Below, one piece after another: positions 3,405 through 62,825 of a DNA stretch of 64,000 bases. The notes below the pieces were generated by a model. The model saw nothing but the letters and a program-made list of their open reading frames with translations, was not told where the DNA came from and searched no databases. A program made the translations under genes and the position numbers. Source of the DNA: Callorhinchus milii (lineage: Eukaryota); the NCBI RefSeq assembly GCF_018977255.1, contig NW_024704742.1, positions 98,520,001 to 98,584,000 on the forward strand. The letters run 5' to 3'. Each line of letters begins with the position of its first letter. Position 1 is the stretch's first letter.

Positions 3405-3635
3405 ATGGGTTTAGGAATAGAAACTAGGATAGGCAATAAAAACAGAAGTCACTGGGAACACTCAGCAGATCAGGCAGCATCTACGGAGAGAGAAAAGTGA
3501 GTTAACATTTCAGGACGATGAGCTTTCGTCAGCATCTGCAGGATTTTGCATTTAGGATAGGCACTCATGTGGAATATAAACCCCGGTCGGACTGGATGGG
3601 CCAATTGGCCTGTTTCTGAGATGTACCTCTATTAA
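3405..3635 (+). mobile_element. CR1 3'UTR fragment, interrupted by a Penelope-derived element
   Basis: ctcatgtggaatataaac..ggactggatgggccaattggcctgtttctg resembles the CR1 end at 35100-35182. Confidence 0.6.
3436..3552. mobile_element. Short Penelope-like-element-derived repeat, internally deleted, with perfect 11-bp TSD
   Basis: Matches the left arm and the tail of 13918-14151; flanked by taggataggca at 3425-3435 and 3553-3563; minus strand CTGACGA..GAAA at 3501-3532. Confidence 0.8.
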
Positions 3636-13480: not shown

Positions 13481-13917
13481 CTTGTGCTGGTAACAATAGT
13501 GACTCAGGCTGCAAACGGATAGTTTTTCATTATTAAGGAATTTGAACAAATCTGGAATTTCTATCCTCAAAGTAACAAGGTTTAAACTTTTGAAATAACT
13601 CCATGAAGCTTGTGTGGAACTTCAGGAATGCACTTCACAGTGTTATTGTTCAAACCTAGTGTCATTGGATTTGAAATTGAAGTTGCACTTTTGTTAATCC
13701 TGCAAACGTGTTTGAAAATGGGTGCAAATTGTGGCTTCATCTATGATAATTAACATATCAAAAAAATCTATTATGAAACATCAAGAGTTTTCAACCCATT
13801 ATGTTTTAGTTGTGTCAATATTTCCACACGCAGCTGTGAGGTCAGAATAAAAGAGGTTTGATGGCCAATATTGGAAGATTAACATTGTAATCCAGAAGGA
13901 CCAAACATGGAAGGTCG

Positions 13918-14151
13918 AAAACAAAAATAGGAGTCGCTGGGAACACTCAGCAGGTCAGGCAGCATCTATGGAGAGAGGAAAGTGAGTCATCGTTTCGGGT
14001 CCATGACCCTTTGTCCCATTCTGATGAAGGGTCATGGACCCGAAACATTGACTCACTTTCCTTTCTCCATAGATGCTGCCTGACCTGCTGAGCAAAGCAA
14101 CTTCTGTTTTTGTTTTCAGATTTCCAGCATCTGCAGTATTTTGCGTTTTGT
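13918..14151. mobile_element. Palindromic non-autonomous Penelope-like-element-derived repeat with 15-bp TSD
   Basis: Inverted arms 13946-14011 and 14027-14092 (63/66 match); tail cagatttccagcatctgcagtattttgc; TSD aaacatggaaggtcg 13903-13917 / aaatatggaaggttg 14152-14166. Confidence 0.8.
14016..14054 (+). ncRNA. Minimal type-I hammerhead ribozyme-like motif (probably decayed)
   Basis: CTGATGA (14021-14027)-A-GGGTC-ATG-GACCC-GAAAC (14042-14046); helix II perfect, helices I and III imperfect. Confidence 0.6.
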
Positions 14152-14604
14152 AAATATGGAAGGTTGTTCATTCAGACAGGAATTGTGCTCCTGGGCATTC
14201 CCTCAGATAAAGTGCTGTGGATGCCTTTGTGATGACAAGAGTAGGAACATGCTTTGACTTTAGCAAAAAAAAGTAATAGTTCAGGAAATTCTTGTCGACT
14301 GTAATTACCATTGGTATTATTTCACTTAGAAATAAAATAACTATTATTAGTTGTAATGAATCCAATTCATTACCATCAAACTTGAAAGCTTACCCTTCTA
14401 AATTTCCCCAGAGATCCCACAACCATCAATTACCTAAGCATATTTTAGCTGCTCTCAACTTTATGTAACAACAATGAGGTACCAAATCAATTCTAATGGC
14501 TCCAACTATAAGAATTGCCCATACTCCACCAACTAAGCAGGTTGGAACTTTTCTTAACTCTTGAGTTTGGAACTTTTGTTAGTTCTTTCCTAAAGATCAG
14601 CAGA

Positions 14605-15018
14605 GTCACAGATCACAAAAGAAGTTTAGATGAGAAAGCTCTTCAGTCTATTTCATTTAATCTTTCCAGAATTTCCAGCCCACCTTCTTCCCATTACAGC
14701 ATCAAGCTGTTTCTTAAACCCCTTAAACCTCTTTCCTGGTAGCCTGCTCTGGTTGTTGCTTAACCTGAGTGTAAAGAAATACTTCCTGGTATCCATGCTA
14801 AAATTGTTTGTCAAAATTCTGAGTGTGTAACCTCTTCTTTTGCAGCTTTGATGTACCTGTCTTGGGTTTACATTGACTGTCCCATGTAACCTCTTAAATA
14901 CCTCTACAAGGTACATTCTGAGATGTCTGTTCAAAGCTTTAGAGCTTAAGGTTATTTAATCATTCATTTGAGCTCATCCCTTTAAGATTAGAGATCAGCC
15001 TCATTCATTCCTCTCTAG
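14605..15018 (-). mobile_element. CR1 3' fragment
   Basis: ORF 14653-14934: LVEVFKRL..RGYTLRI..RKYFFTLR..FKKQLD. Confidence 0.8.
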
Positions 15019-15035
15019 TGTTCATTATATATATA

Positions 15036-16138
15036 ACCGCCAGCAGCACATCTGCACAAACGGCTTCTCCTCCCGCTCTCACCCGGTTACCTGCGGGGTA
15101 CCCCAAGGATCCATCCTTGGCCCCCTCCTCTTTCTGATCTACATGCTCCCTCTTGGGGATGTCATCCACAGACATGGGGTACACTTCCACATGTATGCAG
15201 ACGACACCCAACTCTATTTTTCCACCTCCCTTTGTGACCCCCAGTCCCCTGATGTTCTGTCAGGCTGCCTGTCAGACACCAGGAGCTGGATGAGCGCAAA
15301 TTTCCTTCAGCTGAACGTTGACAAGACGGAAGCCATACTCTTTGGCTCTTGTCAATGTCTAAAATCTCATGGCTCTCACCTCCTCCACCTACCCAACCTG
15401 CCCCTAAAACTCTCTGAACCTGTACGCAACCTAGGCGTCAGGTTCAACCCCCAATTATCCTTCCTCCCCCACATCCGGTCCCTCATCAGCACCGCTTTCT
15501 TCCACCTCCGATGCATCTCTGCCAATACCTCTTCCCAAAAGCCGCTGAAATCCTGGTCCATGCCTTTGTCACCTCTCGGCTGGACTATTCTAACACCCTC
15601 CTCACCGGTCTCCCATCCACTACCATCCATAAAATCCAAATCATTCAAAGCTCTGCCACCCGCATTCTCACCCGCATGAAACTCGTCTCCCCGATTACCC
15701 CAGTCCTTGACAGACTGCATTGGCTGCCTGTCCCAGAGAGGATCGATTTCAAGATCCTCACCCTTGTATTCAGGTCCCTGCACTTCTTTGCACCCTCCTA
15801 CCTCTCTGACCTCCTCTCTCCTCAGCACAATACCTGTTGCCTTCATTCCTCCGGGTCTGGCCTTCTCCTCATCCCCCAAGTCCTCCGCTCCACCCTCGGT
15901 GGCCATGCCTTCAGTCACTATGCCCCGAGGCTCTGGCACTCCGTTCCTCACTCCCTCCACCTCATCCCCTCTCTTCCTATTTTCAGGTCTCCGCTGAAGA
16001 CCTTCTTTTCGACCGCGCCTTTGGTCACCTTCCCCCCCCTTCCCCTGACTTGGCCCCGGGATCCGTTACTGTGAAGTGCTCTGAGACGCCATCCAGGGTG
16101 GAGGGCGCTATATAAATCCAAGTTGTTGTTGTTGTTGT
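15036..16138 (+). mobile_element. 5'-truncated L2 LINE, frameshifted RT (pseudo-ORF2) with (TTG)n tail
   Basis: [54 protein letters not shown]; ends gcgctatataaatccaag(ttg)n. Confidence 0.95.
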
Positions 16139-18410: not shown

Positions 18411-18698
18411 GTCATTCAGATCTCTGAAGGTCACATTAGGGAAATCGATGCAGGATTAATAATAAACTTGAAGATGTGAAAAGCACTATATCAATTGCAA
18501 GGATTATTATTATTATTGTTATAATAGTCCCACGTCAGGACTTTGAACGCAAACAGTCTAGGCTGACATCCCAATGCAGTACTGCATTGTCAGAGGCACA
18601 AAATACAGTCACTACAATTTACAGTATATGCTGTAAAATGCTTTAACACATCCTTCCAACATGAAAGGCACTAAACCAAATGCAATGTTTATTATAGG

Positions 18699-18885
18699 AT
18701 AATAATAATAATAATCATTGCATTTGATATAGCGCCTTATCAAGTCTTCGAGACGTCTCAAAGTACTTCACAGAATATACTGTAAAGTGAATTAACTGTA
18801 TATTTTGTGGGCAAAACGCAGCAACCAATTGCACACAGCAGCGACCCACAAACAGTTGTGGATTGAGTGACCAAATTATTATTTT
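18699..18885 (-). mobile_element. Young SINE 3' half
   Basis: (AAT)n-ttgcatttgatatagcgccttatc..ccaattgcacacagc..cacaaacag. Confidence 0.85.
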
Positions 18886-19755: not shown

Positions 19756-20112
19756 GGAGTCCTGTAGTGTATTGGTTAGAGCCCTCATCTCGCAATTGAG
19801 AGACCTGGGTTTGATTCCCAGCAGGGTGAAATGATGGGCAAGTTTCCTTACTCTACATGCTTCTGTTTAACTGGCAGTAAGTAGGAACCTGGTTGTTAGT
19901 CGATTGGCAGCTCTCTTTCCAGGGGTAAAAATCCCTTCAAAAAAAAATATTGGTGTCTCATTCCACGACTGTTTCTGGAACTATGCACAATTGCTTCCTC
20001 GTTTTGCCCACAAAATATACAGTCAATTACTTTATACTATATTCTGTGAGGTGTTTTGAGATGTCTTAACAATGTGATAAGGCGCTATATCAAATGCAAG
20101 GATTATTATTAT
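19756..20112 (+). mobile_element. Young tRNA-derived SINE, long form, full length
   Basis: ggagtcctgtag..tggttagagc (A box), gggtttgattccc (B box), internal segment ~19861-19930, tail gcgctatatcaaatgcaagg(att)n. Confidence 0.9.
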
Positions 20113-36493: not shown

Positions 36494-38085
36494 CAAGGTT
36501 TCCAATGACAAGGTTACCAATGACCATTCGGAGCATTTGGAGTCCTGTAGCTCAGTGGTTAGAGCACTCGCTTTACAAGCGAGAGACCTGATTTCAATTC
36601 CAGGCAGGGCGAAACCTTGGGCAAGTTTCCTTACTCCACACCCCTAATAATAAACCCTCCAAAAACCAAAAACAATAATTAAATTGGTCATTTTCAATCT
36701 ATGACTGTTTGTGGGACATTGCTGTGCGCAATTGGCTCCCGCGTTCGCCCACAAATATACAGTCAATTCACTTTACAGTGTGTTCTGTGAAGCGCTTTGG
36801 GACGTCCTCCCGATGTGAAAAGCGCTATATCAAATGCAAGGATTATTATTATTATTATTATCTGCGACCAGGGCTCCCTCTGCCTTCTCGTCCTCCTCGA
36901 CCTAATGGCAGCATTCGATATGGTTGACCACGCTATCCTCCTCCACCGCTTGTCCTCCCACCTCAACCTTCAAGGCCCTGTCCTTGAGTGGTTTAGGTCG
37001 TACCTCTCCCACCGTCTTCATTTTATTTCCTCAAACGGCTTTTCCTCCAGCCCCCGCACTGTCTCGTGTGGTGTCCCTCAGGGCTCTGTCCTCGGTCCCC
37101 TCCTCTTCACCCTCTACATGCTCCCCCTTGGTGACATCATCCGCAGACATGGGGTTAACTTCCACATGTATGCGGATGACACCCAACTCTACCTTTCCTC
37201 CTCTATCCTCAATTCCACGACCACCGATGTCCTGACAGCTGCCTGTCTGACATCGAGTCTTGGACGAGAGACAACTTTCTTCAGCTCAATGTGCGCAAAA
37301 CTGAGGCCCTCCTGATTGGCTCACGTCAGCGCCTCCGCACCTCAGGCGCTGACAGCATCAGCATCCAAAGCTGCACTCTCCACCTCTCAAAGTCAGTCAG
37401 GAACCTCGGCATTCTGTTCTACCCTGAGCTGTCCTTTCTTCCTCATATCCGCGCCACAACTGGCACCACCTTCCATCACCTCCGAAACATCACCAGACTA
37501 CGGCACTACCTCACCCCTTACGCTGGTGAAACTCTGGTCCACGCCTTTATCACCTCAAGGCTGGACTATGGGAACTCTCTCCTCGCCGGCCTTCCCGGCA
37601 CCTCCCTCCACAAGCTGCAGGTCATTCAGAACTCTGCAGCTCGTGTACTGTCCCGCACCAGGCTTCGGGACCACATCACTCCCACCCTCGCTCGCCTCCA
37701 CTGGCTCCCCATCCCCCAGAGGATCGAATTCAAGATCCTCATCCTCACCTACAAGGCCATTCACGGCCTTGCTCCCTCCTACCTCTCCGACCTACTATCC
37801 CCCACACTTACCTGCCCGTACCCTCCGTTCCTCTGGCTCCGGTCTGCTCCACATCCCCCGCCCCAACCGTCCTACCATCGGTGACCGGGCCTTCAGCCTC
37901 TCAGCCCCGAGGCTCTGGAACTCCATACCCCAGTGCCTTCGCCACTTCCTCCCTTTCCTCCTTCAAGGCCGGTCTCAAGACCTTACTCTTTGACCGTGCC
38001 TTTGACCCTCTCTCAATCCCTCCGCCTTGCCCCTTCTCACCCCTTTTTCAAGTCTCGCTTCAAAACCCTCCTTTTCGACCTTTGA
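36494..38085 (+). mobile_element. 5'-truncated L2 LINE (RT domain, frameshifted), interrupted by SINE 36539-36860; terminal tail missing
   Basis: KVTND | [64 protein letters not shown]. Confidence 0.95.
36539..36860 (+). mobile_element. Young tRNA(Ala-like)-derived SINE, short form, full length
   Basis: tagctcagtggttagagc A box, ttcaattcc B box, ctcgct..agcgag anticodon-like stem, Deu-derived block, L2-type tail, (TTA)n. Confidence 0.95.
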
Positions 38086-39054: not shown

Positions 39055-39394
39055 ATAATAATAATAATAACAATAATAATAATAATAATCCTTGCATTTG
39101 ATATTGTGCTTTTCACGTCTTCTAGACATCTCAAAGCACTTCACACAATATACTGTAAAGTGAATTGACTGTATATTTGTGGGCGAACGCGGCAGCCAAT
39201 TGCGCACAGCAATGTCCCACAAACAGTCGTAGATTGAAAATGACCAATTTATTATTGTTTTGTTTTTTTGGAGGGATTATTATTAGGCTCTGTGTGGAGT
39301 AAGGAAACTTGCCCAAGGTTTCGCCCTGCCTGGAATTGAACTCAGGTCTCTCGCTTGCAAAGCGAGTGCTCTAACCACTGAGCTACAGGACTTC
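39055..39394 (-). mobile_element. Young SINE, short form, full length
   Basis: Colinear with 36539-36860; TTTGCAA (TGC, Ala-like) anticodon loop on the minus strand. Confidence 0.95.
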
Positions 39395-46204: not shown

Positions 46205-47229
46205 TGATTCTCAGTTATCCTTCCTCCCCCCACATCCGGTCCCTGACTAGCATTGCCTTCTTCCACCTCCGCCACATTATCTGTCTCCGACAAAACCTCA
46301 CCTTATAAGCTGCCAAAACCCTTGTCCATACCTTTGTCACCGCTCGGCTGGACTACTCGTGGACTCCTGCAGCTCAGTGGTTAGAGCACTCACTTTGCAA
46401 GCGAGAGACCTGGGTTTGATTCCTGGCAGGGTGAAACCTTGGGCAAGTTTCCTTACTCCACACGCCTGACAATAATCCCTCAAAAAAAACAATAATAGAT
46501 TGGTCATTTCAATCCACGACTGTTTGTGGGACACTGTTGTGCGCAATTGGCTGCCGCATTTCGCCCACAAATATACAGTCAATTTACTTTACAGCATATT
46601 CTGTGAAGCACTTTGAGACGTCTAGAAGACCTTGTCCCCTCTTTCCCCATCAAATGCAAGGATTATTATTATTATTATTACTCTAACGCCCTCTTTGCTA
46701 GTCTCCCCTCCTCCACTATTTACAAAATCCAGCTCATTCAAAACTCTGCTGCCCGTATTCTCACCTGCACCAAACTTCGTACCCCTATTACTCCACTCCT
46801 TGCCAAACCCCACTAGCTCCCTGTCACAGAGCGGATCAACTTCAAGATCCTCACTCTAGTGTTTAAATCCCTCCATTCCTTGTCCCCCCACCCCCCATCT
46901 CTCTAACCTCCTCTCTCCCCACAGCAGTACCTGCTGCCTCCGCTCTACTGGGTCCAGCCTCCTCCACGTCCCCCAAATCCTCCGCTCCACCATCGGTGGT
47001 GTGCCTTCAGCTACTACGCCCCCAAAATTTTAGAACTCCCTCCCTCAACCCCTTCGCCTTGCCCCCTCCTTCCCCATCTTCAGGTCATGTCTAAAGACCT
47101 TCCTCTTCGACCGCCCCTACAGTTACCTTCCCCCTCCCCCTGGCTCGGCCTCGGGCTCCACCATTGTTAAGCGCTCTGGGACGCTGCCCAGTGTGGAGGG
47201 TGCTATATAAGTGCAAGTTGTTGTTGTTA
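46205..47229 (+). mobile_element. L2 3' fragment with (TTG)n tail, interrupted by SINE 46361-46680
   Basis: FDSQLSFLPHIR, LVHTFVTARLDYS | NALF..KIQLIQNSAARIL, RINFKIL; gctatataagtgcaag(ttg)n. Confidence 0.92.
46361..46680 (+). mobile_element. Young SINE, short form, full length, inserted in L2 (apparent TSD tactc)
   Basis: Colinear with 36539-36860; tactc at 46354-46358 and 46679-46683. Confidence 0.93.
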
Positions 47230-50930: not shown

Positions 50931-51348
50931 AGAGTTGTTTGAATCCTATTTTTCTTCAGATAAACTTTTTCTTTGAAATAAAAATTGATCTGAACTGGAA
51001 ATTCACTTTTCGCTGAATATGATATCTGCTATGAAATATGAACACGCACTTTTTTTTTAACTTTTGGATGAGCAGTGAGGTTTGATGTTTTCTGTGGCTC
51101 TGCATGATTTGTGTGAGTACGGGAACAAGAAACAAATAAACCTCAAGTGATTGATTATTTTGAGCAAATGTTACCAGGGTAATGAATAAAATAAACATCA
51201 GGAGGATACATCGAAACTCACATTCTAACTCTAAAGAGGAGACAGTCAATCAGGATCTGTGAGAGACAAGTTAGCATTCCAGGTGTGACTCTTCATGAGA
51301 ATTAAAATTGATTGCTGATTCTGATTGACCTACAGTGGGTTTCCAGCA

Positions 51349-51912
51349 TTCAAAGTTCTGTCCTTGACTGGTTCAGGTCCTACCTTTCACACCGCTTCCA
51401 TTTCGTCCCAGCAAACGTTTTCTTCTCCAGCCCCTGCACTGTCTTGTGCGGTGTTCCTCAGGGCTCGGTCCTCGGAAACTTACCCCATGTCTGCGGATGA
51501 TGTCACCAAGCTGGGACATGTAGAGGATAACGAGGAGAGGACCAAGGACAGAGTCCTGAGGAACACCGCACGAGACGGTGCGGGGGCTGGAGGAGAAGCC
51601 GTTTGTTGAGACGAAGTGGAGGCGGTGTGATAGGTGGGACATGAAACAGTCAAGGACAGAACCTTGAAGGTTGAGGTAGGAAGGGAGGCGGTGGAGGAGG
51701 ATTGAGTGATCCACAGCATCAAAGGCAGTGGAGAGGTCAAGGAGGACGAGGAGGCAGAGGGAACCCTGGTTACACATGGTCAGGATGTCATTTGTGACCT
51801 ACACCAGAGCAGTTTCCGTGCTGTGGGCAGCACCGAAACCCAATTGGAGGGGCTCATGAAGGGAGTGGGAGGAGAGGAAAGAGCGAAGCTCAGAGGCAAC
51901 GGCTCTCTCAAA
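51349..51912 (-). mobile_element. L2 RT fragment (51476-51912, minus) with a 127-bp fold-back inverted copy (51349-51475, plus)
   Basis: HSTETAL, LLDLSTAFDAVDH, GVPQDSVLGPLL on minus; GVPQGSVLG on plus. Confidence 0.9.
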
Positions 51913-57203: not shown

Positions 57204-57525
57204 ATAATAATAATAATAATAATCCTTGCATTTGATATAGCGCTTTTCACGTTGGGAGGACGTCCCAAAGCGCCTCACAGAACACACTGTAAAGTGAATT
57301 GCCTGTTTATTTGTGGGTGAACGCGGCAGCCAATTGCGCACAGCAATGTCCCACAAACAGTCGTAGAAATAAAATGACCAATTTATTATTGTTTTGGGTT
57401 TTTGGAGGGATTATTATTAGGCGTGTGGAGTAAGGAAACTTGCCCAAGGTTTCGCCCTGTCTGGAATTGAACTCAGGTCTCTCACTTGCAAAGCGAGTGC
57501 TCTAACCACTGAGCTACAGGACTCC
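57204..57525 (-). mobile_element. Young SINE, short form, full length
   Basis: Colinear with 36539-36860, same gggacgtcctccc tail variant. Confidence 0.95.
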
Positions 57526-62684: not shown

Positions 62685-62825
62685 AGAAATAGCTAATTAG
62701 CATCTGATCTGTTTTGCCTTTTTCGCTCACAAAATATACAGTCAATTCACTTTTTAGAGAAATAGCTAATTCACATCTGATCTGTTTTGCCCATTTCGCT
62801 CACAAAATATACAGTCAATTCACTT
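62685..62825 (+). repeat. 68-bp tandem duplication spanning a SINE 5' junction
   Basis: 62685-62752 vs 62758-62825, 64/68 identical. Confidence 0.9.

Follow-up and report, generated by a model that had tools for sequence, protein, structure and literature searches.

The window analysed here, a stretch of 64,000 nucleotides from Callorhinchus milii, carries at positions 13918-14151 a hairpin element flanked by a direct repeat. The core arms of the hairpin (13946-14011 and 14027-14092) are 66 nt long and 95% complementary, with 3 mismatches and a 15-nt gap between them. These positions and mismatches reproduce those given by an earlier sequence-only reading, and the true arms prove to be longer: a gapped alignment stretches them to 13917/13918-14015 against 14023-14117, with 85 matches, 10 mismatches and one 4-nt gap, leaving only 7 nt unmatched at the centre of the palindrome. 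The predicted fold has an energy of -161 kcal/mol (z = -20), and none of 200 shuffled sequences was as stable. From left to right, the element comprises an inverted, 5'-truncated copy of an element end (13918-14015, minus strand), which starts at the tail boundary and ends within the CUGA box, a short junction between the head-to-head copies (14016-14018), a sense 5'-truncated copy of the same end, which is part of a pseudo-LTR (14019-14117, plus strand, with a private change at 14093-14096), and a one-sided unpaired tail of 34 nt (14118-14151, plus strand). The junction is placed by the mirror register of the arms and by the consensus of loose contig ends before 14019; it consists either of three non-family bases, or of the family's upstream run minus one base, in which case the sense copy would begin at about 14015. 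The tail, which had not been set apart in the sequence-only reading, is a separate part that stops at the family 3' end, as seen from the gapped arm alignment, the sequencing depth and the loose ends. Two further details were observed in the 3' half of the sense copy. An 8-bp stem (14071-14078 with 14125-14132) closes a stem-loop that contains the inner end point at 14114-14117, and a stretch of pyrimidines that closes with CAG at the tail boundary (14101-14119, plus strand) resembles a splice acceptor, with no host exon identified in the window.

The element entered as one block with a target-site duplication (TSD) of 15 bp, of which the left copy lies at 13903-13917 and the right copy at 14152-14166. 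The two copies match at 13 of 15 positions, both differences being C/T, and the last G of the left copy also fits the element. A fraction of only 0.0006 of 5000 random flank pairs scores equally, and the flanking repeat described from the letters alone is reproduced. Part of the target site (13908-13917) is similar to the reverse complement of the first bases of the tail, which may reflect a priming microhomology or chance. The mobility of the 234-bp unit is further backed by a probable empty site in a related species (organism B, run X15), which is deduced from four alignment tables. One contig of this run, with a depth of 66.3, covers 13750-13902, from which it departs by 19 differences and 1 gap. 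The same depth, from one contig, recurs on the right flank, where the end distances put the piece at 14152-14273. Since the contig has 186 letters left on its right side, too few for 234 bp plus this piece, it would represent a site without 13903-14151, with one target copy and no element; the joint itself is not among the joints listed. The divergence of the flank from organism B (about 13%) and that of the arms (10 of 95 positions) would fit an insertion shortly after the lineages split. The locus is also a probable presence/absence marker between the two related species.

The family is represented at 3436-3552 by another, independent insertion. It is made of an inverted piece (3436-3532), whose outer start corresponds, to within 3-4 nt, to the family position where the 13918 arm begins and which ends at C3 of the hammerhead described below, and of a sense tail of only about 23 nt (3530-3552), which overlaps the inverted piece by a 3-nt microhomology. 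Its TSD (3425-3435 and 3553-3563) is 11 bp long and perfect (11/11), with a chance value of 0.0006. The inverted piece is identical to the left arm of 13918-14151 at 79 of 95 positions, and the centres of the two insertions differ.

The sense copy begins with a minimal type-I hammerhead (14019-14053, plus strand). It includes CUGAUGA at 14021-14027, an extra A at 14028, a 5-bp helix II at 14029-14041 and GAAA at 14042-14045, extended to GAAAC at 14046, with a predicted cut after 14049. A minimal-hammerhead descriptor confirmed the core proposed earlier at 14021-14046 as its single match on both strands of the window, where 0.035 matches are expected per window from 200 Markov simulations. The Rfam hammerhead models gave no score at the element, neither at the gathering threshold nor at E values up to 10. 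The 10 matches obtained with other Rfam models at E up to 10, miRNA-like hairpins and some weak others, all fall below their gathering scores and were discarded as matches to the long stem.

The three motif copies noticed earlier in the window, one in each arm and one at 3435-3535, are all broken. In the right arm, position 16.2 is A, where the family has G, and 2 of the 4 family pairs of helix I are present, which suggests that this copy is catalytically impaired, as had been supposed. The left arm was said to have a damaged CTGANGA box; the box is in fact cut off, C3 and U4 being absent, besides being mutated, and in this arm G8 and U16.1 are both changed to A. At 3435-3535, helix II is interrupted by two mismatches and the 5' strand of helix I is missing. 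The suggestion that a read-through hairpin would hide the core is supported by folding predictions, in which the probability of helix II is 0.67 in the isolated 49-nt motif and below 0.001 in the full unit, also when about 220-250 nt of flank are added on each side.

More can be learned about the ribozyme from the family as a whole. Contigs from 4 of 24 runs were aligned at a likeness of at least 80% to this one diverged copy, which served as reference, and 13,233 (X1), 27,790 (X15), 9,385 (X9) and 4,405 (X19) contigs did align. The depth-weighted majority letters in X1 are G at 14047 (73%), A at 13990 (96%), C at 14025 (57%), C at 14012 (52%) and G at 14034 (62%), the first of which agrees with the majority reading CGTTGAC proposed after GAAA. 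Taken together with the two upstream bases of the loose ends, the family majority has a full core, a 5-bp helix II, an ACGU palindrome at 15.1-16.1 and a 4-bp helix I, in which position 1.1 is G or A, either of which pairs with U. Within the palindrome AACGTT of the sequence-only reading, the helix-III palindrome is limited to the four letters ACGU; the outer A and U are the core A14 and the cleavage-site base. Endings in C-G-U-U, like this one, are frequent in Fig. S3 of PMC4209133, and the family majority letters give a complete minimal type-I hammerhead fitting the consensus shown there for metazoan Penelope-like elements (PLEs). Position 11.1 of the family frequently carries U (A at 13997, 54% in X1), which counts against a tidy conservation.

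The repeat is plainly abundant. The family depth is confined to about 13918-14151: in X1 the summed depth, which is not a copy number, is 7.6-8.6 on the flanks and from 7,000 to 570,000 inside the unit. At the 3' end of the family (14149-14151), the depth drops to flank level, and the loose ends beyond are heterogeneous and A/T-rich, with an agreement of 0.37-0.41. Upstream of 14019, where loose ends were read out to 30 letters, at least about 13 nt of family sequence are shared in all four runs and then fade, with an overall agreement of 0.38-0.45; this 13-mer does not recur elsewhere in the window beyond chance. The depth is several-fold lower over the hammerhead core than over 14044-14085. 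This fall was considered as a mark of cleavage and rejected, contigs being unable to show ends and stem II being variable. At least 12 different left-to-right or back junctions occur among the rows listed, some of which are alignment artefacts, since a single diverged copy was the reference and 80% likeness the threshold. The joints 14015-14114, 13981-14114 and 14019-14114 are of the type made of an inverted piece plus a tail. Of the 15 joints listed, 11 (13919-13938 to 14102-14117, on opposite strands) were left out of account, because they probably come from ordinary sense copies whose alignment is divided between the two arms. Run X19, guessed to be RNA, contains family contigs and none on the unique flanks of the locus, and is uninformative on expression.

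The absence of convincing coding capacity, noted from the start, was borne out by the four frames of at least 55 aa over the element, none of which carries a Pfam family. The plus-strand frame translated through the hammerhead core stops at 14089-14091. A protein search with the frame through the element, restricted to longer proteins, returned 2 candidates, none significant, which is weak evidence. Pattern scans of viral contigs gave 0 and 0 matches; those found in metagenomes (6) and prokaryote genomes (3) were all dismissed, since the 9 are 21-22-mers that occur by chance in GC-rich DNA and the likeness goes no further. No PLE open reading frame was found among the 337 frames of at least 55 aa in the window, which gave 3 RVT_1 matches, one sub-threshold cyclin match and no GIY-YIG domain. 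The three RVT_1 matches presumably belong to LINE fragments of the L2/CR1 kind.

The window, with a GC content of 34-50%, is filled with LINE reverse-transcriptase fragments and tRNA-headed repeats. Decayed LINE fragments lie at 14972-16137, 36791-38080, 51376-51798 and other places, three of them with Pfam RVT_1 above the cut-off; the nearest, about 0.8 kb from the element, has no BLAST likeness to it. One LINE fragment (RVT_1 at 51376-51798) contains inverted 132-nt arms (51344-51673, 85%, 66 nt apart), which is a fold-back within a non-PLE element. Inverted SINE/LINE 3' ends with (AAT)n tails cluster at 18467-18809, with arms at 18597-18652 and 18752-18807 among others. Five tRNA-like heads (19758-19829, 36541-36612, 39321-39392, 46363-46433 and 57452-57523) belong to a dispersed repeat of about 320-370 bp with AAT-rich tails, 66-94% alike, which is a SINE family. 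At 62685-62825, a 73-bp unit is tandemly duplicated (94%) and overlaps a SINE-tail fragment.

The long inverted arms and the lack of coding capacity could also recall a DNA-transposon MITE or a fold-back element, in which the hammerhead-like motif would be incidental, and the silence of the Rfam hammerhead models is in line with this view. MITEs, which are class II elements, are bounded on either side by terminal inverted repeats and have short TSDs of constant length. In contrast, the inverted repeats do not reach both ends of the element, which has a one-sided tail, and the TSDs measure 15 bp in one copy and 11 bp in the other. The motif moreover agrees with the minimal-hammerhead consensus, also for helix I, which can be recognised only in the family, at the low chance expectation per window given above. 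The MITE reading is largely refuted, and we regard it as extremely improbable.

It had also been proposed that the 234-bp unit moved as a retrozyme-like, ribozyme-bearing element, that is, as a fixed palindromic master transposing as a unit. Part of this proposal stands, since the unit did enter as one block with a TSD, and many of the longest pieces listed are palindromes of about the same length. However, these pieces differ in their centres, with gaps of 0-16 letters and many different joints, so that a fixed palindrome does not appear to propagate. The copy at 3436-3552 is built differently, no tandem units were found at the locus or in the window, and the hairpin would hide the ribozyme. 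Transposition of such a master is thus very unlikely. The different centres of the other inverted copies, including 3436-3552, make it most likely that the palindrome arose at integration and was not copied from a palindromic master.

The explanation that we consider probable is that 13918-14151 is a single dead, truncated PLE insertion, made by a PLE reverse transcriptase/GIY-YIG endonuclease. As no PLE reading frame could be linked to the repeat, PLE membership rests on four structural features, namely a minimal type-I hammerhead, an adjacent inverted 5'-truncated copy, a one-sided tail of 30-40 nt and a TSD of variable length (15 and 11 bp). The Penelope-like origin proposed earlier is thus backed by the architecture and the type of motif, and not by an open reading frame. 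The enzyme would nick both strands about 15 bp apart, the distance recorded by the TSD. One nick would then prime a cDNA at the outer end of the tail (14151) and the other at its inner boundary (14117), by analogy with PMC11167929, which reports, in the part available, that in vitro a PLE protein acts on both strands, nicking and extending them, and that the tail lies between two reverse-transcription start sites. Both cDNAs would run toward the 5' end of the RNA and stop after about 135 and 98 nt at the 5' edge of the hammerhead. Their ends would be joined head to head, which would produce the palindrome and its one-sided tail on the spot. The overlapping arms at 13918-14151 would require two RNAs, or one used twice, and one RNA would suffice at 3436-3552. 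Since both arms span the predicted cut site, the template RNA was presumably uncut, and the hammerhead would be a passenger of the element end. Self-priming on an antisense template is another possible route to head-to-head junctions, after what is available of PMC3846280.

What speaks against this explanation, besides the failure to find a linked PLE reading frame, is that all three arms of the window end only a few bases from the 5' edge of the core. A short dedicated template would equally explain these end points: the same integration chemistry could have acted, with a PLE in trans, on a SINE-like non-autonomous RNA of about 150 nt consisting of the pseudo-LTR only, with the hammerhead at its head. 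The lower depth over the core than over 14044-14085 points in the same direction. According to the available parts of the sources, pseudo-LTRs alone can direct integration in trans (PMC3846280) and non-autonomous elements have been derived from them (bioRxiv 10.64898/2026.07.22.740005). On the other hand, the family sequence continues upstream of 14019 in all four runs before fading, as staggered truncation would give, and no sharp start is reported there, though contigs cannot show one. Such a dedicated template appears unlikely. A broader proposition, that either this RNA was used or the PLE reverse transcriptase stalls at the uncut hammerhead fold, seems rather unlikely too. If one or the other were true, thousands of these stumps would record two-strand priming base by base and could be used to map late PLE integration. 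Non-overlapping pieces, as at 3436-3552, would then mark priming on one RNA, and overlapping arms, as at 13918-14151, priming on two.

Returning to the probable truncated PLE insertion, the element is a real insertion of an already described pattern and of an ordinary kind. Taken alone, it is of little weight, being one of thousands of copies, and a dead one. Collectively, short inverted insertions represent a natural data set for PLE integration, with its two priming sites, its one or two templates and its uncut ribozyme, and these steps are not yet validated according to the available part of PMC11167929. Among the papers open to search, none on this family was found, and none contains one or the other of two 19-mers taken from the element. 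The accessible portions of PMC6155905 and PMC4350176 hold nothing specific on it, and the terms shark, Callorhinchus, Leucoraja and skate are absent from supplement file 2 of PMC4209133. The bioRxiv study 10.64898/2026.07.22.740005 covers, in its available part, one chondrichthyan genome, and its supplements may list this family.

Among known systems, the animal non-LTR retrozymes are similar in being non-coding, in carrying a type-I hammerhead and in their kinship with PLE terminal repeats (PMC7229834 and bioRxiv 10.64898/2026.07.22.740005, as far as available). As described there, retrozymes consist of units of 150-450 bp in head-to-tail tandem, have canonical hammerheads and yield circular RNA, whereas the present element joins two copies head to head and its motif is minimal and broken. 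No tandem array of this type was found at the locus or in the window (periods up to 500). A canonical type-I hammerhead has a 6-bp helix I and loop-loop contacts; helix I is 4 bp long in the family and 2 bp here. The retrozyme-like label of the sequence-only reading is thus not retained, since tandem units are lacking and the motif is minimal rather than canonical. The ribozyme itself is closer to the minimal hammerheads of metazoan PLEs, as presented in the available part of PMC4209133, with which it shares CUGANGA followed by one extra base, the G10.1-C11.1 pair, GAAA-C-G-U-H, the lack of a loop III and a short helix I; it differs by its 5-bp helix II and its broken state. The same source describes pairs of such motifs on opposite strands 100-700 bp apart, finds that most copies are single and truncated, and reports that intact motifs cleave little or not alone.

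Similarities also appear with the Poseidon PAc element of Anolis carolinensis (PMC11167929, available part), in which two end points bracket the tail about 90-130 nt downstream of the hammerhead and the RNA template is uncut. The start of reverse transcription in the Anolis PLE lies in a stem-loop, as the inner end point does here. The Anolis hammerhead cuts only with the protein of the element and is dispensable for insertion in vitro. The PAc reading frame starts inside the hammerhead, whereas here the plus frame stops early, as mentioned above, and no link to a PLE reading frame was found. The closest overall likeness is to insertions of endonuclease-bearing PLEs (Penelope/Poseidon, Neptune, Nematis), as described in the accessible parts of PMC3846280 and PMC8557442. 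The former reports a 31-bp tail, TSDs of 8-10 bp and head-to-head copies as the most frequent arrangement, and the latter a 30-40-bp tail with an adjoining inverted 5'-truncated copy. The present element differs in having no open reading frame, in both copies being cut to about 100-135 nt, and in its 15-bp TSD, compared with the 8-10 bp of the rotifer examples. It shares with them the head-to-head 5'-truncated copy, the one-sided tail, the TSD and the hammerhead in the terminal repeat, a combination which is the published signature of endonuclease-bearing PLEs.
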